DNA from: a virus
Taxonomy: Duplodnaviria > Heunggongvirae > Uroviricota > Caudoviricetes
Strand: one strand, 5' to 3'
DNA length: 64,000 bases
IMG/VR virus record: IMGVR_UViG_3300043410_000715
Location: 25,711-89,710 of that record
The notes under the pieces are model-generated. The model ran no database searches. It was not told the DNA's origin and saw only the letters and a list, made by a program, of their open reading frames with translations. The translations under genes and the position numbers were made by a program. The number at the start of each line of letters is the position of its first letter. Position 1 is the stretch's first letter. Positions 2,084-62,314 of this stretch are shown one piece after another.

Positions 2084-2935
2084 TTAGATGTCCAAATACT
2101 TTAACTGAAACAAATCAGCGTGAGGATCCCATCCTGCGTAACCACGAGGATTGCACACAATGCGAGTTTCACCGATCATGTAGTCAAACGGATCATGTGT
2201 ATGACCGTGTGTCCATAACACAATCTCAGGGTGATCCATAATGAATTCACTCAAGTCACTACTATAACCACCGTTCATCAGGTAATCACTCTTGTATTTT
2301 GGATGCGTAGATTCTTTACTAGGAGCATGGTGTCCTACGAAAACAATTTTACGATCCTTCATATCAGGAAGTATTGCGTTTAGATAACCGATAGTTTGCT
2401 GGTGACGATACATTGCATGAGCAGGACGCAACTTAGTGTATCCATGTTCATCATTTTTGATGATACGGAAATCATTCATCATGTCATTGATGGCATGTAG
2501 AGTAAGAGGGTCACCCTTATTCATATCAGTCCACAATGTAGCACCGATGAACGTTACATCATTGATGACCTTTACATCACGTTCTAAAAAGTAAACGTTA
2601 TTGAATTGGGCACAAGTGTCACGTAGGTCTTGCAGACTTGCCTTCCACTTACCGTGATAGAATTCGTGATTACCCGCAACGTAAACAACATGCGGGAATC
2701 GTTCACTGCAACGTTGTAGGAAGCCACGAAATCTCATAGCCGCTTGTTGACGGGCACCTAAATTGATATAAGGTGCGTACGGATTAGTAACAGTTGGTGG
2801 ATCATTTGGATGCTGGTGCAAGTCCTCAGCAATCATAATGTCTCCACTAAGGATCAATACCTCTGCACCTTCTGTATTGTGAAGGTCAAGGTCTTGAAAT
2901 TCTAAGTGTAGGTCTGAACAAACTGCGACTTTCAT
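2084..2935 (-). CDS. calcineurin-like metallophosphoesterase
   Basis: 283 aa with motifs DLHLE (DxH), GDIM (GDxxD), GNHE, GHHA and GHTHD, typical of Ser/Thr phosphatase and phosphodiesterase families. Confidence 0.8.
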   Translation of the reverse strand: MKVAVCSDLHLEFQDLDLHNTEGAEVLILSGDIMIAEDLHQHPNDPPTVTNPYAPYINLGARQQAAMRFRGFLQRCSERFPHVVYVAGNHEFYHGKWKASLQDLRDTCAQFNNVYFLERDVKVINDVTFIGATLWTDMNKGDPLTLHAINDMMNDFRIIKNDEHGYTKLRPAHAMYRHQQTIGYLNAILPDMKDRKIVFVGHHAPSKESTHPKYKSDYLMNGGYSSDLSEFIMDHPEIVLWTHGHTHDPFDYMIGETRIVCNPRGYAGWDPHADLFQLKYLDI

Positions 2936-5476: not shown

Positions 5477-6148
5477 TTAATATGTGTGTGAATAAACTAA
5501 AAACGGGGTCAATCCCAGACCATTTAAACGAATCTCAAGTCTACGCTTTGCGATATAGATATATGTTTTGCCGTACTCAGCATCAATCATGGGTATTGAA
5601 ATGCTACGCTTACCTTCTACTGTCATTTGAGAAACAAATTCAGCATCAGACAACGTGCTTTGTTCAACCTTCAACAAACAGTAGTAAACTTTTTTCGTTG
5701 TTTTCTCTCTAATGATTGCTAGCAAGTGTAAATTGTTTGTCCCCTTAGTTTTTTCAATCATAGGGTCAACAAACATTTCCTTCAACGCAACGAATTGTTT
5801 GCTCTCAAACAGTTTGCTAAAGCCATCATTTTCTTCTTTATTGTTTTGTAAAAAGCTAGCCTCAGTAGATTGCTTATCAGTAATCTTCCCTATACTAAGA
5901 CCCTTAACATCAAGATCGGCAATCGGGGCTTTAACATCAATCACATTCTTTCCAGCACCCATCCACTCTGCATTAGTGATGCTATCAGTAACAGCATATT
6001 CCCAAGTTTCTTTAGCTACCTGTATATCTCTATTCTTTGACAGAAAAGGAGCATAATACGATTGCATTTCTACGGCAAAGTTTTTGTTGAAGTCTTTACC
6101 GAGAATAGAATCATGGTCAGTGATGGGCACTGGTGTGAATTTAAGCAT
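5477..6148 (-). CDS. hypothetical protein
   Basis: 223-aa ORF. Its start overlaps the clpP stop by 8 nt. Confidence 0.55.
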
Positions 6149-6734
6149 TGCGTTTTGTTACGATTTCATCAATCAATCCGTACTCTAACGCCTCTTGTGC
6201 TGACATGAACTTATCACGATCCATGTCACGTTCAAAGTCCTCGTATGTTTTGCCCTTTGAATTGTGGCTAACATAGATTTCAGTTAGTCGCTTTTTCAAG
6301 TAAGTGATTTCCTTGTAACTGATTTCAATATCACTTTGCATACCACGAGCACCACCCGATGGCTGATGAATCATGTGTCGTGCATTGGGGAGCATAAACC
6401 TTTTGCCTGGCGCTCCCGCTTGTGCGAGGAGAGAACCCATACTACATGCCTGACCCATAACAATCGTCTGTACATCGGGACTAATAAACTGAATACAATC
6501 GTAGATCGCCATGCCTGCGGTAACACTACCACCGGGCGAGTTAATGTACATAGAAATGTCTTTTGTCGCATCTTCACTTTCCAAGAACAATAGTTGGGCA
6601 ACAATTAAGTTTGCCATGTGGTCATGAACTTCACCCTCTAGGAGAATGACACGGTCTTTTAGAAGGCGACTATAAATGTCATAACTACGCTCGCCTTTAC
6701 TTGTTGATTCAACAACGATTGGAACTAAACTCAT
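6141..6734 (-). CDS. clpP: ATP-dependent Clp protease proteolytic subunit ClpP
   Basis: 197 aa with ClpP signature blocks ([30 protein letters not shown]), the Ser/His/Asp triad context and an AAGGAG Shine-Dalgarno. Confidence 0.9.
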
Positions 6735-6760
6735 AACTCTCCTTAATTAGTGATACCTAT

Positions 6761-6790
6761 AGTATAACAGAGAGTTTTTATAACTACAAT
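6761..6790 (-). promoter_or_regulatory. candidate promoter TTGTAG-N18-TATACT upstream of clpP
   Basis: Minus strand reads ...TTGTAGTTATAAAAACTCTCTGTTATACT..., about 25 nt upstream of the clpP Shine-Dalgarno. Weaker match than the repeat family. Confidence 0.3.
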
Positions 6791-6802
6791 AGATTTGGTT
6801 AA

Positions 6803-8329
6803 TTATTTACGTGTGCTACGCATGCCACGTTCAGTGGGTTTATTTTGTGGATTAGTGATTTGTTGTGCGGCTTTTTCTAATCCACGGCGAGTTGATCTGC
6901 CACTTGATTTTGTAGCTTCACCCTTCTCACCTTCATCTTCATCTTTCGGAACTCCCTTACCTTTATCAATTTTGAATGTAAAGTTTCCTTTGATACCTGT
7001 ACTGTAATATGTTTTACCTGCTGATAGGTAAACACCTTTGATTGAGTCACCTGGGTAAACTGTGTCGAATTCACCTAGTGTCCATGAATCTTTATTTTCT
7101 TTTGCCGAAGTGTAAACTTGTACCAACGCACCGTTGTTTAAAATTTCGGCAGCTGCCTTACTAAAGTTTGTATGCTTGTTCACTTCGTCTGCGGCTTTGT
7201 GTGCTACAGCGGCAATCAAGTGATAGAATAAATTAACACTATCTGGGTTATCTGTACCACGCTGGTTAGCAAGTTTTTGTAAGTTCTTGCTTAGACCCAT
7301 AGTAGCAATGTGTGTTAAATTAACTGGACCCACACCTTTTAATTCTTCAATTGATTTTGCATCTTTCTCATCAATGATGCCATAACGCAAACCTAATAAT
7401 AAAGGTGATCCTGCTTGACCTGCATCTTTGATTTGTTGCAACATATCAATAACGTCTTTGTATTTGCTTAACAGTTTCTTGCCCTCTTTTGTTAGTTTCA
7501 ATTCTTCAATTGTATCTAACAAATTTTTAGCACTAGCTGTTGCACCCTTGCCACCTTTGGTACTAATTTTAATAAATTGTCCGCTATCATTAGTCAATAT
7601 ACTATCGCTTAAACCTGCTGTTTTGCTTTCGTCAAAAGAAATTAATGTGTTCTCAAATGAACCACCCATAAATTTCTCAGCGGCTTCACCTGCGTTACCT
7701 GTGTATTGACCTTTTTGTAATGCGATTGGTTGTAAAATTTCACAGAAGTAATCACGGAAAGCAGTAAAGCTATATCCTTCTGGTGTCGGGAACGTTACTG
7801 GTAATGGACTACCTGTCGCTAATCTATGTGCTACAGCGTATAGAGGGTTATCAGTACCCAAGCTCATTGCTAATTGGTTCATAACATCAGCGATAGTTAA
7901 ATCAATTCTATCACCTAATAAATCTTGCGGGCTTAAACCTGATTGAATTTTTTCTGCGGCTTTGCCTGCGTACTTGAAATCACCTACTTTATTTGCAATG
8001 TAATTATCCTTTATGTTTGGATTAATTTCTTGCAAATAACGACCTATAACCATATTACCTTGTGCGCCGGTGAATGTTGCTATACCGAATCCACCTGCTC
8101 GTGCAGTTTTTTGATTCTGCCAATCAATGTCGCCTACTTGTTGTTCAACGTCTGCAATTGCTTGGTCTAATTGTTCAGGCGTATATTTGCCACCACCTTC
8201 GGGGAAAAATTGAATACTCTGGAATACAATTTCATCACCGTGTGAGTTACGGAATAAGTCACCTGGTTTACGTCCTGCTAAACCGGTACTTTCTGTTAAT
8301 AGTTCTAGGTTGTTTAAAATATCACGCAT
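6803..8329 (-). CDS. hypothetical large protein with Lys/Arg-rich C-terminal tail
   Basis: 508 aa. The C-terminal 60 residues are highly basic and disordered (GKGVPKDEDEGEKGEATKSSGRSTRRG...RGMRSTRK). Confidence 0.6.
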   Translation of the reverse strand: MRDILNNLELLTESTGLAGRKPGDLFRNSHGDEIVFQSIQFFPEGGGKYTPEQLDQAIADVEQQVGDIDWQNQKTARAGGFGIATFTGAQGNMVIGRYLQEINPNIKDNYIANKVGDFKYAGKAAEKIQSGLSPQDLLGDRIDLTIADVMNQLAMSLGTDNPLYAVAHRLATGSPLPVTFPTPEGYSFTAFRDYFCEILQPIALQKGQYTGNAGEAAEKFMGGSFENTLISFDESKTAGLSDSILTNDSGQFIKISTKGGKGATASAKNLLDTIEELKLTKEGKKLLSKYKDVIDMLQQIKDAGQAGSPLLLGLRYGIIDEKDAKSIEELKGVGPVNLTHIATMGLSKNLQKLANQRGTDNPDSVNLFYHLIAAVAHKAADEVNKHTNFSKAAAEILNNGALVQVYTSAKENKDSWTLGEFDTVYPGDSIKGVYLSAGKTYYSTGIKGNFTFKIDKGKGVPKDEDEGEKGEATKSSGRSTRRGLEKAAQQITNPQNKPTERGMRSTRK

Positions 8330-8348
8330 AATGTGTATTTATGCGATT

Positions 8349-8840
8349 TTATGTTTTAAACAAATCTTGTGTCTTGAACCATTTGCGTTTACTGTGTGCG
8401 CTTTTTAGTGGAATGCCATGCTTCTTTAATTTTTCTCGGAAAACAAAGAAACTGGGACCATGACTCATAATAGGCTCTTTGCCCTTACTACGTCTTTGAG
8501 CACCCTGTATATCCCACTGATACTGGTGGCACATTTCATGTGCTAATGTTGATATTAACCAATGATGCGAATACCACTTGTCCATCAATCGTATTTTGCA
8601 ATAACTTCTACGACCGGGTAATCTTTCCCATGATGCATAGCACATACCCCAGTATTTCCTACATCTAGGAACTACCTCGATTTCTGGCATTTCTAGTGCA
8701 TTTTTGAAAACAGCTTTGTTTATCAGTCGGTATAGGTATATGACCTCATAGATATCAGTTCGATATCCAAGGCGTTTTTGATAACTAATGCTAGGGGGTT
8801 CTTCCTGCATCAAATCTAAAAGCACGTTTTTTCTGAGCAT
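8349..8840 (-). CDS. SprT-like zinc metallopeptidase domain protein
   Basis: 163 aa. HExxH motif in a SprT-like context (ISTLAHEMCHQYQW). Confidence 0.55.
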   Translation of the reverse strand: MLRKNVLLDLMQEEPPSISYQKRLGYRTDIYEVIYLYRLINKAVFKNALEMPEIEVVPRCRKYWGMCYASWERLPGRRSYCKIRLMDKWYSHHWLISTLAHEMCHQYQWDIQGAQRRSKGKEPIMSHGPSFFVFREKLKKHGIPLKSAHSKRKWFKTQDLFKT

Positions 8841-8907
8841 AATATTTTATTTAAAGATTAAAGTGACGTAATGTATGAGTAGATAAATAAACTGTAAGGA
8901 GAATAAC

Positions 8908-9228
8908 ATGTTAAACTATCTAAAGAAGTTGTTTGGTTTCGGTACATCTGAAACTGCACCTGAAGCACCATATAAAGTAGAAACGCCGGTTCAAGCTGGT
9001 CCTGCTAAATGTGGGTGTGGTCGCAGTCAGACAGGAAACTGTGTAGGTCTACACAAGTTGACCCCAGAAGAATGGGCTGTACACGCAGATAATCCAAACG
9101 CTACTAAAGCACCTGCGGCCGCAATGACAGCTAAGCCAAAGAAAGCTAAAGCACCTGCTAAGCCAAAAGCAGAAAAGACAGCAAAACCAAAGGCGCCTAA
9201 AAAGCCAAAAATGACCGTCGCAAAGTAA
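8908..9228 (+). CDS. Lys/Ala/Pro-rich histone H1-like DNA-binding protein
   Basis: 106 aa. AGGAG Shine-Dalgarno 7 nt upstream. The C-terminal half is AKPKKAKAPAKPKAEKTAKPKAPKKPK repeats. A CGCG motif sits near the N-terminus. Confidence 0.6.
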   Translation: MLNYLKKLFGFGTSETAPEAPYKVETPVQAGPAKCGCGRSQTGNCVGLHKLTPEEWAVHADNPNATKAPAAAMTAKPKKAKAPAKPKAEKTAKPKAPKKPKMTVAK

Positions 9229-9920
9229 TGAAAATAGGGTTTGATGTAATCAGCGATTTGAATCTATCCCCTGAGGATAGTTTCAATTGGGAGGGTAAAG
9301 CTACTAGTCTATACTGCATAATTGCAGGAAACATTAGTGACGAATTAAGAACGATTAGACAAACCCTACTTCATTTGTCAAAATTTTATCAAGGGGTATT
9401 TTATATCTCTGGATCTCTGGAATATAATAATGTAATTGACATAGATAAAAGAACTAGTGAATTACAGAAGATATGTAGAGGAGTAAAGAATACAGCGTAT
9501 CTACACCATCACGTTGTAATCATAGATGGTATAGCAATTGCAGGGGCAAACGGCTGGTACGGAAATACAGTACCTACAGATTTTGATTCTGAACAAGCAA
9601 TTGAAAACGCAAGACATGAGGATTTATCTTACCTCAAATCAACACTAGAAAGATTACAGAAACACTTGGACGTAAAAAGCGTTATCCTAGTTTCTAATAG
9701 TGTTCCAGGTCCAGTTCTGTATTTCGGTGAAGAGCCTGAAACAACAGTAACTCAACTTTCCCTAGACATGGTGTTACCAGTTGATACTGAAAAGAAAGTA
9801 ACACATTGGGTTTACGGGACGTATAGAAAAATAGTTGATACACATATCAACGGTATCAACTATATCAATAACTCTTATTTTGGAAGAAAGCCTTATTGGG
9901 CGAAACGAATAGAAGTTTAA
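9228..9920 (+). CDS. hypothetical protein, degenerate metallophosphoesterase-like
   Basis: 230 aa. TAATG coupling to the upstream gene. N-terminus (MKIGFDVISDLNL...IIAGNISDE) parallels the 2084-2935 phosphoesterase (MKVAVCSDLHLEF...ILSGDIMIAED) but has lost the His of DxH. Confidence 0.5.
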   Translation: MKIGFDVISDLNLSPEDSFNWEGKATSLYCIIAGNISDELRTIRQTLLHLSKFYQGVFYISGSLEYNNVIDIDKRTSELQKICRGVKNTAYLHHHVVIIDGIAIAGANGWYGNTVPTDFDSEQAIENARHEDLSYLKSTLERLQKHLDVKSVILVSNSVPGPVLYFGEEPETTVTQLSLDMVLPVDTEKKVTHWVYGTYRKIVDTHINGINYINNSYFGRKPYWAKRIEV

Positions 9921-10228
9921 CCTTCTGCTTCGATTTTGACTTGTAACGGATATCCCTGGCTACGTGCATCTAACGTAACTTCAATTCCCTTTTGTTCGGC
10001 AATTTCGTATGGTAGTACTGCAACGACCGCAGAACCCTGCTCGTGAATATTTACAGTGATATTCGAGGCTGTGTCTTCGGTGTAGTTGAAATAATCGATT
10101 AAGCTACCCACTACAAATTCCATACTAGTCACATCGTCATTCATATAAATGATTTTGTACAACGGTGGTTCTTGTAACGCTAGATTGGGTTTAATTTTGA
10201 TTTTTGTTTCTGTTTGCGTTTTAGACAT
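9917..10228 (-). CDS. clpS: ClpS-like ATP-dependent Clp protease adaptor
   Basis: 103 aa. The core PPLYKIIYMNDDVTSMEFVV...HEQGSAVVAVLPYEIAEQK aligns with bacterial ClpS ([20 protein letters not shown]...VH..G.A..G.....AE.K). Confidence 0.65.
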   Translation of the reverse strand: MSKTQTETKIKIKPNLALQEPPLYKIIYMNDDVTSMEFVVGSLIDYFNYTEDTASNITVNIHEQGSAVVAVLPYEIAEQKGIEVTLDARSQGYPLQVKIEAEG

Positions 10229-10253
10229 TTTAATATCACTTATCTAATAGTTG

Positions 10254-10282
10254 AAAAAGTGAGTAGCCTAACGACTACTCAC
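10254..10282 (-). terminator. rho-independent terminator downstream of hsp20
   Basis: Minus strand reads GTGAGTAG-tcgttagg-CTACTCAC followed by TTTTTCAA. 8-bp stem, located between 10293 (hsp20 stop) and 10228 (clpS start). Confidence 0.55.
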
Positions 10283-10292
10283 AGCTATTATA

Positions 10293-10730
10293 TTATTTAG
10301 TGTAATTAATAGCAATTGCTTTTGGCTTCTTTTCTTCTGGAACAACACGTTCTAGTTGAATAGTTAGAATGCCGTCTTTTTGTGAAGCATTGATAACTTC
10401 AACGTGCTCTGCTAGCGTAAACTCACGCACGAAATCACGTGTGCTAATACCCTTGTGTAGGTATTCGGCTACCAAGTCTTCCTTCTTCTGACCCTTAACA
10501 GTCAATACTCGGTTGTCAAGATTGACCTCAACTTCACCTTCACTGAAGCCAGATACAGCAATCTCAATATCGAAGGAGTCTTCGGTATTTTTGACGATGT
10601 TGTATGGGGGATAGTTTAGTGATTGTTGACTGTTTAATCGCATCAAATCGTCAAACATGTTATCGAAACCGATACCAAATTTGTGAATTGACGGAATGTC
10701 GAGGGAACGAAGGGATAGTGTTTTTGTCAT
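10293..10730 (-). CDS. small heat shock protein (Hsp20 / alpha-crystallin family, IbpA-like)
   Basis: 145 aa. Alpha-crystallin domain (FDIEIAVSGFSEGEVEVNLDNRVLTVKGQK...GILTIQLERVVPEE). GGAGAAAA Shine-Dalgarno. Confidence 0.85.
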   Translation of the reverse strand: MTKTLSLRSLDIPSIHKFGIGFDNMFDDLMRLNSQQSLNYPPYNIVKNTEDSFDIEIAVSGFSEGEVEVNLDNRVLTVKGQKKEDLVAEYLHKGISTRDFVREFTLAEHVEVINASQKDGILTIQLERVVPEEKKPKAIAINYTK

Positions 10731-10837
10731 TTGTTTTCTCCTTTAATAAGCAAGTATGACATGTTTCAGACCCGACCATCGGCATCTGAATACGTATTTA
10801 TTTTATAAAAAATACGCAAAAAAATCTAATATTTAGG

Positions 10838-11059
10838 TCAATATAGTTTCTTGGGCAAGCTCTGGTCACGCAAGTATTTTTGCCATCTACGCTTGGCTTG
10901 TCCTTTAGCAAGTTTTCGCTTGACAGTGGGTTTGACGAATTCTTGACGGTCGCGGACTTCCTGAATCAATCCTTGTTCAGTAATCTTCTTTTTGAATTTG
11001 CGTAATGCTTTTTCAACATTCCCGTCTTGTACTATTACTCGTCTACCCTTTATACTCAT
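10838..11059 (-). CDS. rpsU: ribosomal protein bS21 homologue
   Basis: 73 aa basic protein. ...VEKALRKFKKK...EVRDRQEFVKPTVKRK aligns with bacterial S21 (ALRRFKR...EVRRREFYEKPTTERKR). Overlaps the clpX stop as ATGA. Confidence 0.8.
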   Translation of the reverse strand: MSIKGRRVIVQDGNVEKALRKFKKKITEQGLIQEVRDRQEFVKPTVKRKLAKGQAKRRWQKYLRDQSLPKKLY

Positions 11060-12258
11060 ATCAATGCTTTTGGTTCTAAAACTTGCTCCTGATTAATATT
11101 TATCTTTTTGATTTTACTTTCACGATATTTCTGCAAATTGAACATATGGGGCATTAGGACCCTCTCGATTTCAGTGTGTAGACCACGGGCACCCGTTTTC
11201 AGTTTCAAGCAATTGTCAACAATCTGGCCAAGTCCGTCATCAGCAAACTCCAACTCAATTTCATCAATGCTGAACAGGTACTTGTATTGCTCAATGTAGT
11301 TGTTTTTCACATTGGTCAGGACATGTTTTAACTCGTCTTTGGACAGTTCTTTAATACTTACAGTAGTCGTGAATCTACCGATAAATTCAGGAATCATTCC
11401 AAATTTAGTTAGGTCGTCGGGGCTTACTTGTGCTAACTCACCCTCTTTGCGCTTATCTCTGATATTTGCCCCAAAGCCAATACTAGTTCCATGTTGTCTA
11501 TTTGTGATGATTTCCTTCAATCCAACGAATGCGCCACCAGCAATGAACAGAATATTCTTTGTGTTGATTTCTAGCATTTCACCACCTGGGTGTTTGCGAC
11601 CACCGCTTGCAGGAATACGACAGACTGTGCCCTCAACTAACTTGAGTAATGCTTGCTGAACGCCCTCACCCGACACGTCACGGGTAACGCTAGTTGATTC
11701 GCCCTTACGTGCAATTTTGTCAATCTCGTCAACAAACACAATTCCACGTTCTGCTAATTTAGCATCACCACCTGCGGCATTGACTAGCATACTAATCATT
11801 GATTCAACGTCATCACCTACATAACCAGCTTCGGTTAAACTTGTTGCGTCTGCTACGACAAAGGGCACCTTGAGATACTTGGCAACTGTCTTAGCAAGTA
11901 ATGTTTTACCACTACCAGTGGGCCCCACAATAAGAACATTACCCTTAGCTATTTCTAAGTCTTTGGGCGGGTGTGTGATTCGCTTATAGTGGTTAGCGAT
12001 AGCAACGCTCAATACAGTTTTAGCACTATCTTGTCCGATAACATGCTGGTCTAAGTACGCCTTGATAGCGATAGGGTCATACTTGACTTCTTCTTTCTTT
12101 TGGTCAGGATCGGCAACGGTAGCGTCATCTTCGATTAATTGTGTGCATAAATCGATACAGTCGCTACAAATAGCAACGTCCTCACCTACTATAAGTTTTT
12201 TAACTTTATCTTTATGATTTCCGCAAAATGAGCAATGGTTTAGTGATTCAAGTGACAT
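11056..12258 (-). CDS. clpX: ATP-dependent Clp protease ATP-binding subunit ClpX
   Basis: 400 aa. N-terminal C4 zinc-binding domain (CSFCGN...CSDC), Walker A GPTGSGKT, Walker B VFVDEIDK, and a ClpX-specific IGFG-type pore-2 loop (IGFGANI). Confidence 0.9.
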   Translation of the reverse strand: MSLESLNHCSFCGNHKDKVKKLIVGEDVAICSDCIDLCTQLIEDDATVADPDQKKEEVKYDPIAIKAYLDQHVIGQDSAKTVLSVAIANHYKRITHPPKDLEIAKGNVLIVGPTGSGKTLLAKTVAKYLKVPFVVADATSLTEAGYVGDDVESMISMLVNAAGGDAKLAERGIVFVDEIDKIARKGESTSVTRDVSGEGVQQALLKLVEGTVCRIPASGGRKHPGGEMLEINTKNILFIAGGAFVGLKEIITNRQHGTSIGFGANIRDKRKEGELAQVSPDDLTKFGMIPEFIGRFTTTVSIKELSKDELKHVLTNVKNNYIEQYKYLFSIDEIELEFADDGLGQIVDNCLKLKTGARGLHTEIERVLMPHMFNLQKYRESKIKKININQEQVLEPKALI

Positions 12259-12296: not shown

Positions 12297-13274
12297 TTAG
12301 CACTTGATGCGTGGAACAACTGACACCTCTATGTTTCTAGATTTCTCTAATACTTGATTATACTCTGAATTGATAACTAATTGCAATATCCCCTCTTCTT
12401 TTGTGTTACCGTAAATCAATAAATTTCTAGGCTCACCCATAACATAAAATGTTGATTGTATCGGCCAGCAACCCTTGTACATAACTCGGTTGTCACTGTC
12501 TCGCAATGTCATCATCAATCTAATTTCACGATTGTCTGTCATCATACTTTTCATGTAGTCAAGTAATGGCACATCGTTGAATTTAAAATGTTTGCGTTCC
12601 CCTAATACAAAATCTTTGGGGTCTTTTGCCATGACGATAACATTACTAGGTGCTGGTTGCAAATAGCCAAATTTATTGTCTTGGATTAAGTTAAGTGCCT
12701 CGTTAAATGCAACGATGTAATCATAGTTCCAAGTTAGTTTATATGGAACTTGTAACACAATATTGCGATAGGCATTAACGCTCACGCTATAGTTTTTCTG
12801 TTGAACTATATAGGCAGACTCAGGATATGTCTTGAGTACTGAATTTAGTAATTTATCGCCACGTTGTTTTTGATCCATGAACGTGCGATAGTTTGTGTTG
12901 GCTCGGTCACCTTCGATTTGATTAGTAACTTTACCTGAGACTAGACGGTTGTTGACCAATTTACTGTCTGCAACCAAAACATCAAGTGTTATTTTGACTT
13001 TTCCATTTGTTCGTTCTACCGAAACAACTTTGTAATCGTCAACATAGCCTGCACTATAAACATTAATGTCATCACGTTCTAACTTACGCAATGAACTCTC
13101 ACGTTCACTAAGAACTACAGAACCTACACGTATCTGTACAGCTTCACGGAAGGCATTTTGTTTTGCTTGTTCTTGTGTTGCACCTTCACCGGTTACACGA
13201 ATATAACTATCGGTTTGTGTGCTTGCACAAGAAGTCAAGATTAAACATGCCACTATTGCTAGTAGCCGTAGCAT
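12297..13274 (-). CDS. lipoprotein (function unknown)
   Basis: 325 aa. Lipobox signal peptide MLRLLAIVACLILTSC. Confidence 0.6.
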   Translation of the reverse strand: MLRLLAIVACLILTSCASTQTDSYIRVTGEGATQEQAKQNAFREAVQIRVGSVVLSERESSLRKLERDDINVYSAGYVDDYKVVSVERTNGKVKITLDVLVADSKLVNNRLVSGKVTNQIEGDRANTNYRTFMDQKQRGDKLLNSVLKTYPESAYIVQQKNYSVSVNAYRNIVLQVPYKLTWNYDYIVAFNEALNLIQDNKFGYLQPAPSNVIVMAKDPKDFVLGERKHFKFNDVPLLDYMKSMMTDNREIRLMMTLRDSDNRVMYKGCWPIQSTFYVMGEPRNLLIYGNTKEEGILQLVINSEYNQVLEKSRNIEVSVVPRIKC

Positions 13275-13276
13275 GT

Positions 13277-13903
13277 TTAATTACCGAAACGTTTACGTAA
13301 TTGACTAGCAGTGCGGTCGCTATCCAAGTCCCAGCGAATAGTCACTGAAACTTCTTGTGGACCTGTTACTTCCTGCTTAATGACTCTAAAGCCACGCAAG
13401 ATACCCACAGCGTTTGCGCGGATAGTTTCTGTTACTTGATGGGCAGTGTCATTACTATTTTCACGGATAGCGTAGTTAGTATCCTTTTTAGCTTCGTCAT
13501 CGCTCATAGAAACACTGTCGCCTTCATTAATTTTAGTCTTAATGCGGTCGTTAGCTTTCTCTACGTTCTTTGCAATGGTGTTTGTAACACGTGAACTAGT
13601 GATTTCTTCTTGTAAGAAGTGACGAATGTTAGCACGTGCCCGCAAATCTGCACGTGTGAATGCAGTTTGACGGTTATTGATAGTGTTACCATTTGTAGGA
13701 GCAGTACCTACTGATTCAATGGAAACAATATTGCAATTTGATTTGTCGATTGTATACCACGCACAATCAGATTCAATTTTAATTCCTTCTGCCACAAATG
13801 AGGTAGAAAGTTTCTGATTGCGAATAGGCTCGTTGTCGTTGGTTTTGACAGTGCCGCAACCAACAAGCATTACCGTAGCAATACATGCGATAAGGGATTT
13901 CAT
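13277..13903 (-). CDS. lipoprotein, LPP20/FlgP-like size and signal (function unknown)
   Basis: 208 aa. Lipobox MKSLIACIATVMLVGC. Stop and start are 2 nt apart from the previous lipoprotein gene. Confidence 0.55.
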   Translation of the reverse strand: MKSLIACIATVMLVGCGTVKTNDNEPIRNQKLSTSFVAEGIKIESDCAWYTIDKSNCNIVSIESVGTAPTNGNTINNRQTAFTRADLRARANIRHFLQEEITSSRVTNTIAKNVEKANDRIKTKINEGDSVSMSDDEAKKDTNYAIRENSNDTAHQVTETIRANAVGILRGFRVIKQEVTGPQEVSVTIRWDLDSDRTASQLRKRFGN

Positions 13904-13957
13904 TTATTTCTCCGTTGAGTTAATGTTTATAGAGTGTAAAGCAAAACGGAAAAAAGA

Positions 13958-15523
13958 TCAACGCTTTTGGGTAAGATGCTGTTCTATTTCCGAACGTTCC
14001 TTGTCGGATAATAGGTCTATGTCGTACTGCCCATTTTCTATCATTTCGATAAGATATTTGATATATTCCTCATCGTGTAAATATGTGTCCGAAACCTGTT
14101 TGTTCACTTCAATCCAGCGTTTGCTGTCAAACTTGTAAACACGGTTTGGTAATACGTCAACACGAACGAAAGTATCACCTTTTTGTGCAACAGCAGGAAA
14201 TGCTGTTCCAAAATTAGTGTTAACTGATCTGCTAGAATCCGCAGTTAATTTGAATAACTCAGGATGCATTCCTTGCAATACATCTTTAGCCATGTGCTTA
14301 CCATCATAGACTACATAGCCGCCTTCTAGTTCTTTAAATGGTTTTTCTTTTGTAACACCTTCAGTTTGTATTTCAGTTGGAGCAGTTAGATAATCACCGG
14401 GACGTTCAATATCATCGATACCTGCGGCAAGTATTTTTTTGCCATCATCAGCTACTACTTCTGGCTCTGGCTCTGGTTCTTCTACGGGGGTTTCAACTAC
14501 ATCATCAATTGGTGTGGGTTCTGGTTGATAAACCATTGGTGTTGTGTTTTTAAAATGTGTGAATGGTTTAGTCAAATACGGATGCTTATCTAATATAGAT
14601 TCTTCTTTTGCGCTTTCTTGTATTTGCTCTAATTGGTCAGTTGTTAGTGGACCATCATCTGGTTCATATTTAGGTTCATCTTCTAATATAGTTTGAACTT
14701 CTTTTTCATGTTGAACTTTTTCACGTAGTTTGTTTTCTTCTTCAACATCATCGTTATCGTCCCAATCCTTACTTTGGTTAGCCGCAAGAACTAACGCAAT
14801 CGCAAGTGGATCGAACACCACAACTAACAAGATAATAACCCAACGAACAGCGGCTTCAAGCATGTTTTGGTCAGCATTGTCTCCATATATAAGAGCCGCA
14901 ATATATTTGATAGGACCTACTTCTGCTTCTACTTTACGATTCTCAGCCGCAATAGGAGCACGTTCTTCGTTTAGTTTACTGATTTCTTTTTGTGCGTTTG
15001 CAATATCATTTTGTAATAGAGTACGTTCTTTTGCTTGTTGTCTACGAATAGCAACAGCACGTTCTGCACCTTTATCATTGTCAGTTCGACCCAACATCTG
15101 GTCAACTTGTGCATCCATTTGTGTTAATGCTTTACGTGCAGTCTCAATGTTATCTTTTTGTGTCTTAATCTTTTCGTCATACAATGCAAGTTTGGCTTGA
15201 CTATCACCCGAAACAATACCTTGATCCATGTGTGCTTTTGATAGGAAACCAAAGATACCCATGCTTGTCAATAACGCAAGCAATACAACAGCGGGTACCA
15301 AGTACATCTTTAGTACCCAGCCACAACGATGCCAGTATTTACGTAACCAAACTGTCGTGGTGATTTTGCCTACTTCGAGGATAGAACCCATGACGATAAT
15401 AGGGATAACAGCTCCTGCAAAGATAGCAGTTAAGCCTATGATACTATAATAGGCAGCTACTGTACTCAATGACAGTGCTACCAATAAGGTAAGATTGGAA
15501 AGATTTATAATTTTTTTAAGCAT
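13958..15523 (-). CDS. integral membrane protein with long coiled-coil and acidic linker
   Basis: 521 aa. Three N-terminal TM helices, then about 120 aa of coiled coil. A fourth TM follows (WVIILLVVVFDPLAIALVLAA). Next comes a DD/EE-rich linker, and then a roughly 220-aa C-terminal domain. Confidence 0.6.
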   Translation of the reverse strand: MLKKIINLSNLTLLVALSLSTVAAYYSIIGLTAIFAGAVIPIIVMGSILEVGKITTTVWLRKYWHRCGWVLKMYLVPAVVLLALLTSMGIFGFLSKAHMDQGIVSGDSQAKLALYDEKIKTQKDNIETARKALTQMDAQVDQMLGRTDNDKGAERAVAIRRQQAKERTLLQNDIANAQKEISKLNEERAPIAAENRKVEAEVGPIKYIAALIYGDNADQNMLEAAVRWVIILLVVVFDPLAIALVLAANQSKDWDDNDDVEEENKLREKVQHEKEVQTILEDEPKYEPDDGPLTTDQLEQIQESAKEESILDKHPYLTKPFTHFKNTTPMVYQPEPTPIDDVVETPVEEPEPEPEVVADDGKKILAAGIDDIERPGDYLTAPTEIQTEGVTKEKPFKELEGGYVVYDGKHMAKDVLQGMHPELFKLTADSSRSVNTNFGTAFPAVAQKGDTFVRVDVLPNRVYKFDSKRWIEVNKQVSDTYLHDEEYIKYLIEMIENGQYDIDLLSDKERSEIEQHLTQKR

Positions 15524-37829: not shown

Positions 37830-39125
37830 ATGAATAAATTATCAATTTCGGAAGATGACTGTAATTTAATAACCAATAGCGAATATTTCTGCCCAGCCCC
37901 GTTCTCAAATAAACACATAAACACAGATGGCACTGTTAGCCCATGTTGTGTAATAAATAGAACCCAACCTCTACTACATTATTCAGACCCGAATTCTTAT
38001 AATTCTAATCAGATAAAACAGATGAGGGAAAATATAATTAACATCAAACCATCTGTAGAGTGCAAAAGATGCTACGAAACAGAACGCACTGGAATTAGGT
38101 CTTACCGTCAAGGTATGGTAGAACAATTCAAAAAAGATTTTATAAAAAATACCAAAGATAATATCAACCTTGATTATTCTTTAGACAATCCAAAAATATT
38201 ATATTTGGATTTAATGATTGATAATACATGTAATCTCAGATGTAGATACTGTAGCAGTGTGTTTAGTTCTAGTTGGAGTAATGAGACAGCATCACTATTC
38301 AAAGAAATACCTGTTTTTAAAAAAATAATGCGTAGACCTATTCATATGAAAAGGTTAACTGGTTTAGAAAATATTGAATCAATCAAAAACGACTTACGAA
38401 CTGTTGAAAAAATATACTTTGCAGGTGGTGAACCGCTTGTAAATGACGTTCATTATCAAATTTTGGAATATTTAATTGACAACGGAAAAACTGATGTAGA
38501 AATAAACTATTCTACAAATTTTACAAATATCAAAAGAGTAATAAATTATTGGAGTAAATTTACAAATTTACGTGTGGGTGCTAGTTTAGATGCTAATTAC
38601 AAGCGAGGAGAATACATACGAAAAAATCTAGTATGGAATGATATTGTAAAAAACAGAGAACTTATGATTGAAAAACTACCTAATGTAAAATTTTCAATAA
38701 ATTCTACTATAAACATATTCAACGCATATAACATAGTTGATTTCCATCGTGAATGGATAGATAAAAAATTAATAGGACCTTATGATTTTTTCATATATTC
38801 TATTGTGTCTAACCCTGAACATTACGATATTAAAAATCTACCAAAACATCATAAAGATAATTTGTCTAAAATATACAAAGACCATATTGAATACTTACGT
38901 ACATTACCCAGTGCCAATACTAATTGGTATTTTCCTGAATTTAATAGTAATACACACCCGGACTTTACGATACAGTCATTTAATGGTATTTTAGGTAGAT
39001 TGAACCTTGATGCAGAAGATTTTACTAGTTACTGGGAAGTAGATAAATGGCTCGATGCGAATAGGAACGAGTCCTTCGTTGAAATTTTTCCTGAATATTC
39101 GGACTTTGAAACGTTTTTTAGATAA
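37830..39125 (+). CDS. radical SAM domain protein
   Basis: 431 aa. CxxxCxxC motif (DNTCNLRCRYC). An additional N-terminal Cys cluster (CPAPF...SPCC...CKRC) suggests an auxiliary Fe-S cluster. Confidence 0.65.
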   Translation: MNKLSISEDDCNLITNSEYFCPAPFSNKHINTDGTVSPCCVINRTQPLLHYSDPNSYNSNQIKQMRENIINIKPSVECKRCYETERTGIRSYRQGMVEQFKKDFIKNTKDNINLDYSLDNPKILYLDLMIDNTCNLRCRYCSSVFSSSWSNETASLFKEIPVFKKIMRRPIHMKRLTGLENIESIKNDLRTVEKIYFAGGEPLVNDVHYQILEYLIDNGKTDVEINYSTNFTNIKRVINYWSKFTNLRVGASLDANYKRGEYIRKNLVWNDIVKNRELMIEKLPNVKFSINSTINIFNAYNIVDFHREWIDKKLIGPYDFFIYSIVSNPEHYDIKNLPKHHKDNLSKIYKDHIEYLRTLPSANTNWYFPEFNSNTHPDFTIQSFNGILGRLNLDAEDFTSYWEVDKWLDANRNESFVEIFPEYSDFETFFR

Positions 39126-42234: not shown

Positions 42235-42449
42235 TCAATTTTACCCCATTTAACTTTGAGCCATATGCGTTCGTGTATATAGTAATCTATACTTAGAAGT
42301 ATGTGAATCAGAACTGAACTCCCGATTGATTCTTCTAAGTTACCAGTAAGCCAATACATTATTGGTATTGTGAGTAACCACGCTGATAAGCGATAGGTAA
42401 TCATTCTAACTACTGTTCGTTTGTGTGTCTCTGCCATCATGTTCCCCAT
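42231..42449 (-). CDS. small membrane protein
   Basis: 72 aa with two TM helices. Confidence 0.45.
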   Translation of the reverse strand: MGNMMAETHKRTVVRMITYRLSAWLLTIPIMYWLTGNLEESIGSSVLIHILLSIDYYIHERIWLKVKWGKIE

Positions 42450-43279
42450 TCATTTTTAAATAATGGCACTTGCAATCTATCACTATAACGCCAGCCACGT
42501 TTCATTGCTGCCAATGCTACATTCTTTGCGTTCATTTCGTAAACACTTTCAACACCACCAACGGGCATCAAGTAGACTGGACCTTTGAATCCGCAGTTTT
42601 TGTATTCTTGTGTAGCTTTTTCAGCTTCCAATACATCTTCTTCTGAAGCCACCACGAACTTAAGGTATACAAAACCCACATCTTGGTATTGACGTATAAC
42701 ATTAGGCAAAATTGCTTCATTATACTTTTCTCCACTTACTGATAATTTAGGACTTACACTAAAAGTTAGTGCATTCTTTTCTCTATTTCTTTTCCAAAGT
42801 TGCAAGAATTCTTTAAATTCTTCACTCAAATGTTGTGTTCCGTTAGTCTCAAATGTTAACTCTTTGAGAGCCCTCATTTTTTCGTTCGAAAGTAATTCAG
42901 GATAGCTTCTTTGCCATCCAAGAAGTGGCTCACCCCCAGTAATAACCAAGTGTTCATCCATCCAACGACCATGAGGAAGTAAATCAATAATGCTATCGGC
43001 AATAGTATTAACATTGAGCATAGGACTAAGATGCTTGAAACGAGGGTCCCATGAAGCATATGAATCACAGCCCGTAGACACCAACGGTAAATTTTTATAC
43101 TCTGTAATACTATCTGCATCAATTGTAAACCTTTCATTACTAGTTTGACCTCTAGGCATACCGAAGCCTTCACATTTGAAGTTGCACCCAAATGTTCTCA
43201 AAAACACAGAAGGAACGCCCATATAACGTCCTTCACCTTGAATGCTATAAAATAATTCAGCTATTTTTAACTCTGCCAT
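42437..43279 (-). CDS. queE: 7-carboxy-7-deazaguanine synthase QueE (radical SAM)
   Basis: 280 aa. N-terminus FYSIQGEGRYMGVPSVFLRTFGCNFKC matches QueE (FQTLQGEGYFTGVPAIFIRLQGCPVGC). Confidence 0.85.
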   Translation of the reverse strand: MAELKIAELFYSIQGEGRYMGVPSVFLRTFGCNFKCEGFGMPRGQTSNERFTIDADSITEYKNLPLVSTGCDSYASWDPRFKHLSPMLNVNTIADSIIDLLPHGRWMDEHLVITGGEPLLGWQRSYPELLSNEKMRALKELTFETNGTQHLSEEFKEFLQLWKRNREKNALTFSVSPKLSVSGEKYNEAILPNVIRQYQDVGFVYLKFVVASEEDVLEAEKATQEYKNCGFKGPVYLMPVGGVESVYEMNAKNVALAAMKRGWRYSDRLQVPLFKNEWGT

Positions 43280-46241: not shown

Positions 46242-46371
46242 TATCTGGTGTGTTCTTTATAGTATAAAACATGAACAAGCCCGCCACACAAAATAAAAAT
46301 ATGTAAACTGCTTGTTCAATAATCATTCCAAGTAATAAACTCATGTTTGAAAGAAATTCAATCATTTGCAT
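46171..46371 (-). CDS. small membrane protein with Cys-rich C-terminus
   Basis: 66 aa. One TM helix. CTGNCNQGRNCNCKEKK tail. Confidence 0.4.
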   Translation of the reverse strand: MQMIEFLSNMSLLLGMIIEQAVYIFLFCVAGLFMFYTIKNTPDSACTGNCNQGRNCNCKEKKDGIS

Positions 46372-47042
46372 CCTTTGTTAGCAATTTGTAAGAACTCACC
46401 ACGTGCAGATGGATCTGTTTTGAAACCGCCACCCAATCGGCATGTAACTGTGCTGGATCCCGTATCTTCAACACCTCTTGATTTAACACAATAGTGTTGT
46501 GCGTCAATGAGGACTGCAACATCTTCAGTTTCAAGAATGAACTGAAGTGTGTGGAAGATTTGCTCGGTAAGACGTTCTTGGATCTGAGGTCGTTTACTAA
46601 AATACTCGACAATTCGATTAATCTTCGATAAGCCAAGGACTTTCTGCTTAGGAACATAAGCAACTGTAGCCAAGCCATCAATAACGACAAAGTGATGTTC
46701 GCAGTTACTTTGGACTGAAACGTTTCGTTCAACGACCATTTCGTTGTAGTGCATTTTGTTATCAACTGTAGTACACTTTGGAAATGCTTCATAATCTAGA
46801 CCCCAGAAAATTTCATTAACATACATTTTAGCAACACGCTTAGGTGTTTCAGTTAAACTATCATCAGTTAAGTCTAATCCTAAGATACGCATGATTTCAG
46901 TGAAGTGACCTTCGATGCCTGCAATTTGATCCTTGCGGTCGATGTTGCGTTTGTTGATTGGTGTTTCTACACCCATTTTGACTAAGTGCTCATGCACTTG
47001 TTGACCCAACTCAGGGTCGGTTTTTGTTTTGTTATAACTCAT
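46362..47042 (-). CDS. folE: GTP cyclohydrolase I FolE
   Basis: Start moved to MSYNKTKT (AAGGAAGGA Shine-Dalgarno). Aligns along its full length to E. coli FolE, including the CEHH zinc motif and the SKINR block. Confidence 0.9.
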   Translation of the reverse strand: MSYNKTKTDPELGQQVHEHLVKMGVETPINKRNIDRKDQIAGIEGHFTEIMRILGLDLTDDSLTETPKRVAKMYVNEIFWGLDYEAFPKCTTVDNKMHYNEMVVERNVSVQSNCEHHFVVIDGLATVAYVPKQKVLGLSKINRIVEYFSKRPQIQERLTEQIFHTLQFILETEDVAVLIDAQHYCVKSRGVEDTGSSTVTCRLGGGFKTDPSARGEFLQIANKGCK

Positions 47043-47077
47043 AGAATCCTTCCTTACGCGGATATGAAAATTGAAAT

Positions 47078-47097
47078 GTGCTACCGTTGTGTAGCAC
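47078..47097 (-). terminator. hairpin GTGCTAC-n6-GTAGCAC upstream of folE (possible terminator or attenuator)
   Basis: 7-bp perfect inverted repeat followed on the minus strand by ATTTCAATTTTCA. Confidence 0.3.
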
Positions 47098-47109
47098 ATG
47101 TATTTATAC

Positions 47110-58194: not shown

Positions 58195-58454
58195 TAAACA
58201 GTTTTACCAACGGTTTCTAAAATTGTGTTAAGTTCTTCGTTTTCTGCGTTTGTTTGTGTTAGGCTTGCTTTGTGTGCAACACGAATAGCCTTTTTGAGTA
58301 CAGAAGGTTTGACTTCTAGTTCTTCTGCGATTGCTTTAATTGTATCGTTTAGACCTTCATTCAACGTATCAATCTCATGTAATACGGTCATGCCTTCATT
58401 AACAAGTTGTGTTAATTTGATTTTCTGGTCACCACTAAACATTTTTGCTGTCAT
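58194..58454 (-). CDS. hypothetical protein
   Basis: 86-aa ORF. ATGA overlap with the polymerase start. Confidence 0.5.
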   Translation of the reverse strand: MTAKMFSGDQKIKLTQLVNEGMTVLHEIDTLNEGLNDTIKAIAEELEVKPSVLKKAIRVAHKASLTQTNAENEELNTILETVGKTV

Positions 58455-58476
58455 AAATATCTCCTAAAGAAGTAGT

Positions 58477-58506
58477 TAGTATATATGAGCAACGCAACAA
58501 AGTCAA
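58477..58506 (-). promoter_or_regulatory. sigma70-type promoter TTGACT-N18-TATACT
   Basis: Minus strand reads TTGACTTTGTTGCGTTGCTCATATATACT, upstream of 58194-58454 and the polymerase gene. Confidence 0.45.
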
Positions 58507-58530
58507 ACTTTTTACGTAAGTTATTTGACC

Positions 58531-62269: not shown

Positions 62270-62282
62270 TTGTTCCTCGTTT

Positions 62283-62306: not shown

Positions 62307-62314
62307 AAATAATA

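Follow-up and report, generated by a model that had tools for sequence, protein, structure and literature searches.

We analysed a 64,000-nucleotide stretch of viral DNA (IMG/VR record IMGVR_UViG_3300043410_000715, positions 25,711 to 89,710; hereafter the window) and observed a block of genes for the unfoldase ClpX, the ribosomal protein bS21, an IbpA-like small heat-shock protein (sHsp; Hsp20), the N-degron adaptor ClpS and the protease ClpP, which here spans 6 kb. We think it probable that this is a conserved auxiliary block that gives the phage protein-quality-control and proteolysis machinery of its own, plus one ribosomal protein. Genes were assigned from a six-frame list of open reading frames (ORFs) with Pfam, PHROG and NCBIfam profile searches, and all five ORFs that an earlier note had picked out from the bare sequence lie where it had placed them. 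The features are listed by coordinates in the window, strand, identity and basis.

11056-12258, minus strand: clpX, AAA+ unfoldase (NF003745)
11056-11059, minus strand: ATGA overlap of clpX and the bS21 gene (sequence)
10838-11059, minus strand: rpsU-like gene, bS21 of 73 amino acids, ending ...KKLY (PF01165, TIGR00030, phrog_21469)
10795-10801, minus strand: ATAAATA box, candidate -10 element of the hsp20 promoter (alignment of 42 leaders)
10728-10791, minus strand: hsp20 leader, candidate ROSE-type thermometer (Rfam ROSE_3, RF02523)
10293-10730, minus strand: hsp20, IbpA-like sHsp (PF00011, phrog_432)
10259-10292, minus strand: elements of the hsp20-clpS spacer (consensus scan)
9917-10228, minus strand: clpS, N-degron adaptor (PF02617)
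9228-9920, plus strand: degenerate calcineurin-like phosphoesterase homologue (phrog_1649)
8908-9228, plus strand: small basic protein with a Lys/Ala/Pro-rich tail (position and composition)
8349-8840, minus strand: SprT-like zinc metallopeptidase (PF10263)
6803-8329, minus strand: lineage-specific protein of 508 amino acids with a basic, disordered C-terminal tail (without family)
6141-6734, minus strand: clpP (PF00574, PRK00277)

Gene order is conserved across a viral lineage

The feature of the block that stands above chance is the conservation of its gene order, in 80 related loci and in the cultured jumbo phage Phosso. Synteny was assessed by tblastn of the window proteins against the best 80 IMG/VR loci by ClpS match, to which all counts out of 80 refer (L-numbers are locus labels). 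The order is kept in all 80 loci examined and runs from the gene of a 521-residue membrane protein through (two lipoproteins), clpX, S21, hsp20, clpS, the phosphoesterase-like gene on the opposite strand, (SprT) and (the 508-residue protein) to clpP. ClpS and Hsp20 were present in all 80 loci, the phosphoesterase-like gene in 78, ClpX in 72, ClpP in 64, S21 in 60 and SprT in 50; many of these loci end at contig edges, which affects the presence counts. In Phosso these genes follow one another in the same order, though more widely spaced, which indicates that the gene set is ancestral to a wider group and that the window holds a compacted form. Catalytic and interaction motifs, checked over 40-59 distinct lineage sequences per protein, are kept, and by this measure the block genes look intact and functional.

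Strand tells us little, because 70 of the 83 genes in the window lie on the minus strand. The earlier note had described a co-directional Clp block. The direction is correct, but the genes are not contiguous: it had overlooked the SprT-like gene and the 508-residue gene, which lie between clpS and clpP, the latter ending 69 nt upstream of clpP.

ClpP and ClpX retain the motifs of the cellular protease

Profile and active-site checks bore out the earlier identification of ClpP, ClpS, Hsp20, bS21 and ClpX. For ClpP, PF00574 matched with E=1e-80 (270 bits against a cutoff of 20.2) and PRK00277 with E=4e-93 (310.8 bits against 249), while the TIGR00493 equivalog reached 293.6, slightly under its cutoff of 308.6. 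The catalytic triad, which the earlier note had wanted confirmed by alignment, is in place: S98/H123/D174 align with E. coli S111/H136/D185 (structure 3mt6) and are invariant in 51 lineage sequences. The protein has 197 amino acids, with no propeptide and no fusion to a scaffold or capsid domain, and its start carries a strong Shine-Dalgarno (SD) sequence, AAGGAG. It is 69% identical to ClpP of Phosso, 67% to that of Atu_ph07 and 63% to E. coli-type ClpP over the full length.

ClpX scored 516.9 bits with NF003745 (cutoff 359) and 487.4 with TIGR00382 (cutoff 370.75), and its N-terminal C4 zinc finger matched PF06689 (E=1.9e-13). Aligned to E. coli ClpX (8e91), it has Walker A/B, the GYVG pore loop, the RKH loop, the IGF loop for ClpP docking and the sensor-2 motif GARGL. 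Across 56 lineage sequences, these motifs (zinc-finger cysteines, Walker A/B, GYVG, RKH, (I)GF and GARGL) are kept. The clpX start has no SD and is preceded by a conserved GATAAATTAATA motif.

ClpS is divergent and keeps the residues for a ClpA-type partner

The ClpS call stood when put to the profile that the earlier note had named, PF02617, which matched at 85.5 bits (cutoff 23; E=2e-24) over 79 of 80 profile positions; phrog_27368 matched with E=1.4e-21. All nine NCBIfam equivalog cutoffs lay above its scores (best 77.9 against 149), which marks it as a divergent ClpS, and it has an N-terminal extension of 22 residues. We aligned it to the solved structures 3dnj, 4yjm and 1mbu and assessed conservation over 56 lineage sequences. 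In E. coli ClpS, we take N34, D35, T38, M40 and H66 to form the N-degron pocket and E79, E82 and K84 to contact the ClpA N-domain. The phage pocket has N30, D31, T34 and H62 invariant and M36 in 53 of 56 sequences, and its ClpA-contact helix has E75 and E78 invariant and K80 in 55 of 56. At the equivalent of E. coli M62, a residue that also lines the pocket, 55 of the 56 lineage proteins have a threonine (T58), and the D36 equivalent is variable (D/N/E). These changes may alter N-degron specificity.

To our knowledge, ClpS acts only through the N-domains of ClpA or ClpC, and with ClpX in no known system; direct cooperation between ClpS and ClpX is not expected. Since the ClpA-contact residues are kept and ClpS has no known role with ClpX, the word 'cassette' in the earlier note overstates the functional unity of ClpS with ClpXP. 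The co-location that it also expressed holds, and 'cassette' is to be read as a statement about co-location, not about one machine.

A tblastn search with an approximate E. coli ClpA query matched only ClpX in the window and the 80 lineage loci. Two IMG/VR scans were run for ClpA, with an alignment of Phosso, Atu_ph07 and 121Q ClpA and with the ClpA of locus L102 as queries; in the flanks of the resulting 160 loci (best 80 per scan), PolB identity reached at most 52-53%. In a related clade at that level of PolB identity (L169-L171, e.g. L169 6001-11824), clpA lies directly upstream of PolB. The corresponding slot in the window (55480-63013) holds small unrelated ORFs, which implies that clpA was lost from this site or moved out of it. 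Phosso, the PA5oct group and most Rak2-like phages have a ClpA gene; among the cultured jumbo phages examined, those with ClpS (Phosso, PA5oct group) have ClpA too.

The earlier note had called a ClpS adaptor unusual in a phage. This is right by frequency (17 of 50,697 cultured-phage records), but phage ClpS is not new: it has been listed and described in jumbo phages (Attai et al. 2018, PMC6102473; Iyer et al. 2021, PMC7824862), and PHROG families for it exist. Several 'phage' records seem to hold bacterial loci, namely Pseudomonas phage Y7 (L491, OQ572409), Campylobacter phage A11a (L492, MG065691), Acinetobacter phage MD-2021a and Ralstonia phage YO084_1. Among these seemingly bacterial loci are clpS-clpA operons and ibpA genes behind canonical ROSE_3 or ROSE_2 leaders (69 and 100 bits), the strong ROSE matches lying in two records marked 'UNVERIFIED'. 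Such records inflate the counts of phage ClpS and Hsp20.

The clpX stop codon overlaps the bS21 start codon

The bS21 protein matched PF01165 (57.4 bits against 27, E=1.2e-15), TIGR00030 (57.2 bits against a cutoff of 28.95) and phrog_21469, and it is full length, its residues 7-62 corresponding to profile positions 2-58 of 58. At 11056-11059 the clpX stop TGA and the bS21 start ATG share an ATGA, as the earlier note had seen. This 4-nt overlap recurs in 32 of the 34 distinct lineage junctions despite varying flanking bases, and no SD precedes the bS21 start. We consider the overlap a candidate for termination-reinitiation coupling, and its retention makes a good comparative case for translational coupling under selection. 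In Phosso (L001 8974-10820) and Atu_ph07 (L002 8974-10796), the gene directly after clpX is infC, for initiation factor 3 (IF-3), where the window has bS21. That clpX repeatedly neighbours a gene of translation initiation is a new, if modest, observation; we found no description of a clpX-bS21 or clpX-initiation-gene context in the literature searched. The idea of S21-clpX coupling is strengthened by the 32 overlaps and by the infC neighbours in relatives. As to the 'coordinated takeover' of translation initiation and proteostasis that was drawn from it, this is what one might infer from the arrangement.

SD-like motifs precede 31 of the 83 window genes, against a background of 5-8%, which indicates that the host uses SD sequences. 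A Bacteroidota-type host without SD, in which bS21 would have a special role, was rejected on these figures.

The hsp20 leader resembles a ROSE-type RNA thermometer

Hsp20 matched PF00011 (68.5 bits against 20.8, E=5.7e-19) and phrog_432 (E=2e-40). Its best NCBIfam match was IbpA (NF008013, E=1.3e-33), at 116 against an equivalog cutoff of 212, so it is IbpA-like and not an IbpA orthologue. The C-terminus, ...KAIAINYTK, holds an IXI motif (IAI). Over L006-L085, identity to the window Hsp20 is bimodal, at ~52-63% or 73-93%, with the adjacent ClpS at 76-86%; the two classes suggest allelic replacement or faster hsp20 evolution.

The spacer of ~105 nt between S21 and hsp20 is unusually conserved. 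Rfam ROSE_3 (RF02523) matched it at 10725-10791 on the minus strand over the full model (1-69), with the model AUG on the hsp20 start (30.4 bits, E=1.5e-4); at gathering thresholds the window had no Rfam match. Of 10 lineage loci scanned, 7 again had ROSE_3 as the top match at this position (27.7-34.2 bits); L022, one of the other three, starts inside hsp20 and thus lacks the leader. The predicted hairpin I (~10765-10790) has the core GAUGCCGA-ug-GUCGGGUC. In hairpin II of the cmscan structure, CUU-G-CUU (10748-10754) pairs with the SD AAGGAG (10738-10743), leaving a bulged G, and the AUG follows at 10728-10730. CTTGCT...AGGAG is present in 54 of 54 distinct leaders, and the UUGCU opposite the SD is invariant. 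For hairpin I, 94.3% of cells were paired, 8 of 10 pairs showed compensatory changes and none of 500 shuffles reached the observed value; slid registers paired only 15-48%.

Short ROSE-like ibpA thermometers have been defined by their position in the 5' untranslated region of an sHsp gene, by two hairpins and by a 3' hairpin in which a U(U/C)GCU pairs imperfectly with the SD (Krajewski et al. 2013, PMC3669281). All three are found in the hsp20 leader, which lies in an sHsp 5' untranslated region and has two hairpins and an SD that pairs with a U(U/C)GCU. We regard the leader as a candidate ROSE-type RNA thermometer. No report of a ROSE element in a phage was found in the literature searched. 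Lambda cIII aside, we know of no comparable case of a phage thermometer.

Two further structures were discarded. A helix that would mask the AUG (GUCAU/AUGAC) was 82% paired, but 139 of 500 shuffles did as well. A match to the Rfam motif 'freshwater-2' (22.5 bits, E=0.22; 10728-10811, minus strand) covered mainly the SD/AUG end, and the first hairpin misfitted. That match is driven by the AAAGGAGAAAACAAAUG end and probably reflects chance. The 3' consensus of the motif is the same as the SD-AUG segment of the leader.

Just upstream of hairpin I lies an ATAAATA box that resembles the T4 late promoter TATAAATA, with TAAATA invariant in 42 aligned leaders. No sigma-32 promoter (CTTGAA-N13-18-CNCCATAT) was found ahead of hsp20, and the box is a candidate -10 element of the hsp20 promoter that would replace it. 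ATAAATA is enriched in the intergenic DNA of the window, where 10 of its 20 occurrences fall in 13% of the sequence. Occurrences with first bases at 8342, 8883, 10801, 28352, 37818, 47107 and 63063, which lie upstream of the 508-residue gene, the small basic ORF and hsp20, among others, are candidate late promoters.

Among bacteria, the exact hairpin-I core with UUGCU is nearly confined to the region upstream of sHsp genes in Pseudomonas and its allies (79 of 120 matches), and the sHsps behind it are only 35-43% identical to the phage Hsp20. The core GAUGCCGA...GUCGGGUC is identical in Pseudomonas ibpA leaders (GTDB L250-L369, e.g. L250 2444-2479) and in phage leaders. This constraint on the sequence of the hairpin-I stem could be that of a binding site. 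The core and UUGCU were found on at least 119 IMG/VR contigs, and 108 of the 117 analysed adjoin an hsp20 homologue. ClpS is carried by 77 of these 108, and ~29 have a distant hsp20 and no Clp genes. On the latter (L376, L378, L381, L382, L418, L431, L432, L441 and ~20 more), hsp20 is 38-46% identical. The element may be shared by several phage groups, or part of these contigs may come from bacteria. Phage C48C1 (OQ984149; L488 147-214), a cultured T4-like phage that also has the module of late promoter, ROSE-like leader and hsp20, gave a weaker ROSE_3 match of 26.8 bits, and no ROSE match was found at the hsp20 leaders of Phosso, Pelagibacter phage Mosig and cyanophage S-PM2.

Spacer elements and remaining genes of the block

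The spacer between hsp20 and clpS opens with TATAAT (10287-10292, minus strand), 17 nt downstream of a TTGCTA inside hsp20, and contains a 10-bp GC-rich hairpin (10282-10259, minus strand) followed by TTTTTC. An explicit stem search showed that 50 of 54 distinct spacers contain a hairpin with 7 bp or more, built from 28 different stem arms; a stricter terminator criterion selected 4 of the 54. TATAAT stands at the spacer start in 42 of 54, with TTGCTA or TTGCAA in the C-terminal codons of hsp20, 17 nt upstream, and a T-rich tail is present in only 21. The terminator that the earlier note had assigned to hsp20 is plausible in the window, which has the hairpin and the T-run, but it is not general. 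The element may be an hsp20 terminator, a 5' stem-loop of the clpS transcript, or both.

The SprT-like protein matched PF10263 (38.9 bits against 25.6, E=8.5e-10), and its HEMCHQYQW motif (H101-E102-x-x-H105) is invariant in 41 sequences.

On the plus strand, the phosphoesterase-like protein had no Pfam match at E<=0.01, PF00149 included, and matched only phrog_1649 (E=1e-5). The motifs SDLNL, AGNIS and GSLEY replace DxH, GD and GNH(E/D), and GSLEY aligns with the GNHEF of an intact paralogue in the window (2084-2935). The substituted motifs are themselves conserved, and the gene lies on the opposite strand in 78 of 80 loci. With its metal ligands lost and the substitutions conserved, the homologue is probably a catalytically inactive pseudoenzyme, in agreement with the earlier description of a degenerate phosphoesterase. 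It converges on clpS, the 3' ends overlapping by 4 nt (9917-9920).

The small basic ORF is translationally coupled to the phosphoesterase-like gene, as it is in all 54 distinct loci. Its product had no Pfam, PHROG or NCBIfam match, linker histone H1 included, and the 'histone-H1-like' label of the earlier note was compositional only. Equivalents of 62-145 amino acids, with an N-terminal transmembrane or amphipathic helix, APYKVE and a KAP-rich tail, are present in 54 of 54 distinct loci. The two plus-strand genes had been taken for an insert, but with the phosphoesterase-like gene in 78 of 80 loci and the small ORF in 54 of 54 they are a conserved component. The small basic protein of the window bears an unusual Cys-x-Cys...Cys...His insert, CGCGRSQTGNCVGLH, which among the 54 distinct upstream ORFs occurs elsewhere only in L082.

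Upstream of clpX, at a distance of 38 nt, 12297-15523 (minus strand) encodes two predicted lipoproteins (lipobox-like LTSCAS and LVGCGT) and the 521-residue membrane protein. The latter has a weak DUF4407 match and is found in 67 of 80 loci; the lipoproteins are found in 44-45 of 80.

The block has probably long resided in a lineage of jumbo phages

The window is jumbo-phage DNA, kin of Atu_ph07, Phosso and the Rak2-like phages. Its T4-type PolB (phrog_262, E=1e-196) is 42-48% identical to those of Phosso, Atu_ph07, XaC1 and Rak2-like jumbo phages. The window has genes for an ATP-dependent ligase and an exonuclease as well. The block is flanked by phage genes (the T4-type PolB, ligase and exonuclease, and 7-deazaguanine genes), and in the IMG/VR lineage it sits within viral contigs of 100-367 kb. 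The earlier claim of a phage-borne block is well supported by this PolB and by viral contigs of up to 367 kb. No tRNA genes were found in the 64-kb window. A radical-SAM protein (37830-39125, plus strand) and QueE-like radical-SAM and FolE-like GTP cyclohydrolase genes (42437-43279 and 46362-47099, both minus strand) suggest a 7-deazaguanine-type nucleotide or DNA modification pathway.

By megablast, no near-identical record to the block was found among 50,697 phage records, which places the lineage outside the cultured and INPHARED phages. Relatives of its ClpS occur on at least 572 IMG/VR contigs, with 76-86% identity across the best 80, and in a large protein collection the ClpX and ClpS clusters (90% identity) of the lineage number in the thousands. 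Exact-protein look-ups of the terminal genes of the window returned only short Logan contigs or nothing. The lineage is one of abundant, uncultivated jumbo phages, and its abundance in metagenomes is extreme.

Lineage proteins are 76-90% identical among themselves, and the best 120 database matches listed for ClpX are all at least 79% identical. The sequences in cultured-phage records, bacterial-type ones included, are far more distant: ClpX is ~50% and ClpS ~41% identical, and Hsp20 is 35-43% identical to bacterial sHsps and 50% to that of Melnitz, the closest Hsp20 of a cultured phage. For ClpP, the nearest are those of Phosso and Atu_ph07 (69% and 67%). This contrast argues for a long residence of the block in phages and against a recent capture.

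Proposed function and alternative explanations

In the reading we favour, ClpX hexamers would dock ClpP through their IGF loops to form a phage ClpXP, possibly mixing with host ClpP or ClpX. Ribosomes ending at the clpX stop would reinitiate at the bS21 ATG, so that bS21 output would be tied to clpX translation, and bS21 would enter the host 30S subunit and bias initiation towards phage mRNAs; IF-3 in the same slot in relatives hints at a link of clpX with translation-initiation genes. Transcription of hsp20 would start from its own T4-late-like ATAAATA promoter. Since the two-hairpin ROSE-type leader would mask the SD, Hsp20 would be produced chiefly once the hairpin has melted, in heat or under another condition that opens it, and it would hold aggregation-prone proteins during the large late protein load. 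ClpS would bind N-degrons (Leu, Phe, Tyr, Trp) and deliver them to a ClpA-type unfoldase, not to ClpX, redirecting ClpAP specificity. That unfoldase might be the host's, or the phage's own encoded outside the window, as in Phosso, Atu_ph07 and PA5oct. The SprT-like metallopeptidase would act as a further protease. The net effect would be proteostasis under phage control while a virion with a genome of >300 kb is produced, and host proteins might be selectively removed as well.

Several observations weigh against this reading. All functions assigned to the block are read from sequence, and the clustering of ClpS with ClpXP may reflect co-regulation or history and not one machine. clpA is not in the 64-kb window, where no other ORF is that long and tblastn matches only ClpX, nor was ClpA on lineage contigs among the best 80 matches of either IMG/VR scan. 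bS21 is dispensable for the block: 14 loci lack it and have clpX directly next to the hsp20 leader. ClpP also matches prohead-protease families, far more weakly than cellular ClpP. For the leader, ROSE_3 scores are 28-34 bits against an Rfam gathering threshold of 43. Hairpin II never varies and so offers no covariation support, its invariance making it uninformative in this respect. The probability of an unpaired SD computed with ViennaRNA is 0.45-0.60 at 4-50 °C, equal to that of shuffled upstream sequence; this calculation is uninformative about melting, and the model ignores the non-canonical pairs on which ROSE depends.

We also considered that the block serves mainly to destroy specific host proteins, in host takeover or counter-defence. 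ClpS would retarget host ClpAP, bS21 would reprogram ribosomes, SprT-like cuts would perhaps expose destabilising N-termini, and regulators or defence proteins of the host would be removed by ClpXP. In its favour, ClpS has invariant pocket and ClpA-contact residues, the M62-to-T58 change in 55 of 56 sequences could shift specificity, a SprT-like HExxH peptidase co-occurs in 50 of 80 loci, and patchily distributed jumbo-phage peptidases and ClpS have been proposed to be aimed at host proteins (PMC7824862). However, SprT is missing in 30 of the 80 loci, an sHsp with a stress-type leader suits quality control better, and the Atu_ph07 set comes with the disaggregation partners ClpB and DnaJ (PMC6102473), so that we regard this explanation as possible, if rather unlikely. 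We find it still harder to credit an integrated module in which SprT cleaves host proteins, the divergent ClpS feeds the new N-termini to a Clp unfoldase, ClpXP is made in a fixed ratio with a bS21 that retools host ribosomes, and the ROSE leader senses temperature or the translational or RNA-folding state of the host to deploy the sHsp.

A morphogenetic role, with the ClpP homologue as the prohead (capsid maturation) protease and ClpX as an assembly chaperone, is very unlikely. It can draw on matches to phrog_94 (E=1.5e-50) and NCBIfam Clp_rel_HeadMat (E=2e-29) and on the RefSeq name of the Atu_ph07 orthologue, 'head maturation protease'. Yet PRK00277 is over its cutoff (E=4e-93) while Clp_rel_HeadMat, at 102.5, is under its cutoff of 120; over the full length the protein is 63% identical to E. 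coli-type ClpP, and with 197 amino acids it has neither a scaffold nor a capsid fusion; the neighbourhood yielded no structural genes; and ClpX retains the IGF loop for docking ClpP. We attach next to no probability to bacterial DNA, whether as contamination, a mis-binned contig or a recently captured host operon without a phage-specific role. The five families are typical of cells, the hsp20 leader resembles Pseudomonas ibpA leaders, and certain 'phage' records that contain clpS-clpA or ibpA are plainly bacterial. But the order clpX-rpsU-hsp20-clpS...clpP is unlike tig-clpP-clpX-lon or clpS-clpA, the flanks are phage genes on viral contigs of 100-367 kb, the hsp20 promoter is T4-late-like and not sigma-32, and in the searches made, bacterial-type ClpX, ClpS and sHsp are only 35-50% identical, against thousands of lineage copies at 76-90%.

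Phage Clp proteases, ClpS, sHsps and bS21 have been catalogued and are functionally unexplored, and the block offers a compact unit for synthesis and testing. The ATGA of clpX and bS21, with its clpX-IF-3 parallel, points to a selected link between proteolysis and the takeover of translation initiation. If the thermometer is real, ROSE would give lytic phages of aquatic bacteria a temperature sensor that acts in cis, and infection outcome would be linked to water temperature. A narrower form of the integrated reading above, likewise unlikely, would be that phages domesticated an RNA thermometer and placed it on a late promoter in unrelated groups (the jumbo lineage, Melnitz-like phages and the ~29 other viral contigs); phage protein production would then be temperature-aware in natural waters. 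If instead the leader does not respond to temperature and ClpS simply works with a ClpA that the phage encodes elsewhere, the block would be an ordinary member of the jumbo-phage proteostasis repertoire.

Comparison with known systems

Bacteria arrange these genes as tig-clpP-clpX-lon and clpS-clpA. Unlike in bacteria, the phage clpS is clustered with clpX, and clpA is not nearby. The proteins themselves resemble the ClpXP and ClpAPS of E. coli and Caulobacter in keeping the ClpP triad, the zinc finger, GYVG, RKH and IGF motifs of ClpX, and the pocket and ClpA contacts of ClpS. They differ from the bacterial systems in the threonine of ClpS at the M62 position, its scores below equivalog cutoffs and the lack of a ClpP propeptide.

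The gene content of the block was already known for this phage group. Atu_ph07 has ClpX, ClpA, ClpB, ClpP and ClpS listed, with aggregate handling and replication regulation proposed as their roles (Attai et al. 2018), and ClpP, ClpS acting via host ClpAP, SprT-like peptidases, Hsp20 and ClpA/ClpX have been described for group 2.2 jumbo phages, the SprT-like peptidases for the Atu_ph07/Phosso group too (Iyer et al. 2021). With both Atu_ph07 and Phosso, whose PolB is 45-48% identical, the window shares ClpX, ClpP, ClpS, sHsp and S21. The one-strand order in Phosso, clpX, (IF-3), S21, sHsp, (tk), ClpS, is that of the window. Its genes are spread over ~17 kb, with ClpP ~120 kb away, whereas those of the window fit in 6 kb. 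IF-3 follows clpX in Phosso and Atu_ph07, and an overlapping S21 does so in the window. Both phages encode ClpA, and Atu_ph07 also ClpB and DnaJ, none of which is in this window.

The hsp20 leader is like the Pseudomonas ibpA ROSE (Krajewski et al. 2013) in its ~60-nt, two-hairpin form, its place ahead of an IbpA-like sHsp and its hairpin-I core. It differs in that the outer stem of hairpin I is AU-rich, not GC-rich, in the ATAAATA box instead of sigma-32, and in being borne by a virus. Its closest counterpart in a cultured phage is that of the Methylophilales phage Melnitz (MZ577097; L487 148-217), which has an exact TATAAATA, hairpin I, CUUGCUUA-loop-AAGGAG and ATG, and a ROSE_3 score of 34.1 bits. 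Melnitz is a T4-like member of the Kyanoviridae with a 141-kb genome, and no Clp genes lie beside its hsp20 in the 854-bp region examined. The term 'heat shock' does not occur in the Melnitz paper, and the module is unmentioned there.

Among ribosomal proteins, bS21 is the one that phages, huge phages included, are most often reported to carry. As a full-length homologue, the window copy is like other phage bS21 (PHROG 21469, 'moron, auxiliary metabolic gene and host takeover'), and it is unlike them in being coupled to clpX by a conserved ATGA. What appears to be new, compared with these systems, is the compact and conserved arrangement in an abundant lineage, the tight clpX-bS21 overlap with its IF-3 parallel, the candidate ROSE-type leader with a phage-type promoter, and the substitution in the ClpS pocket.

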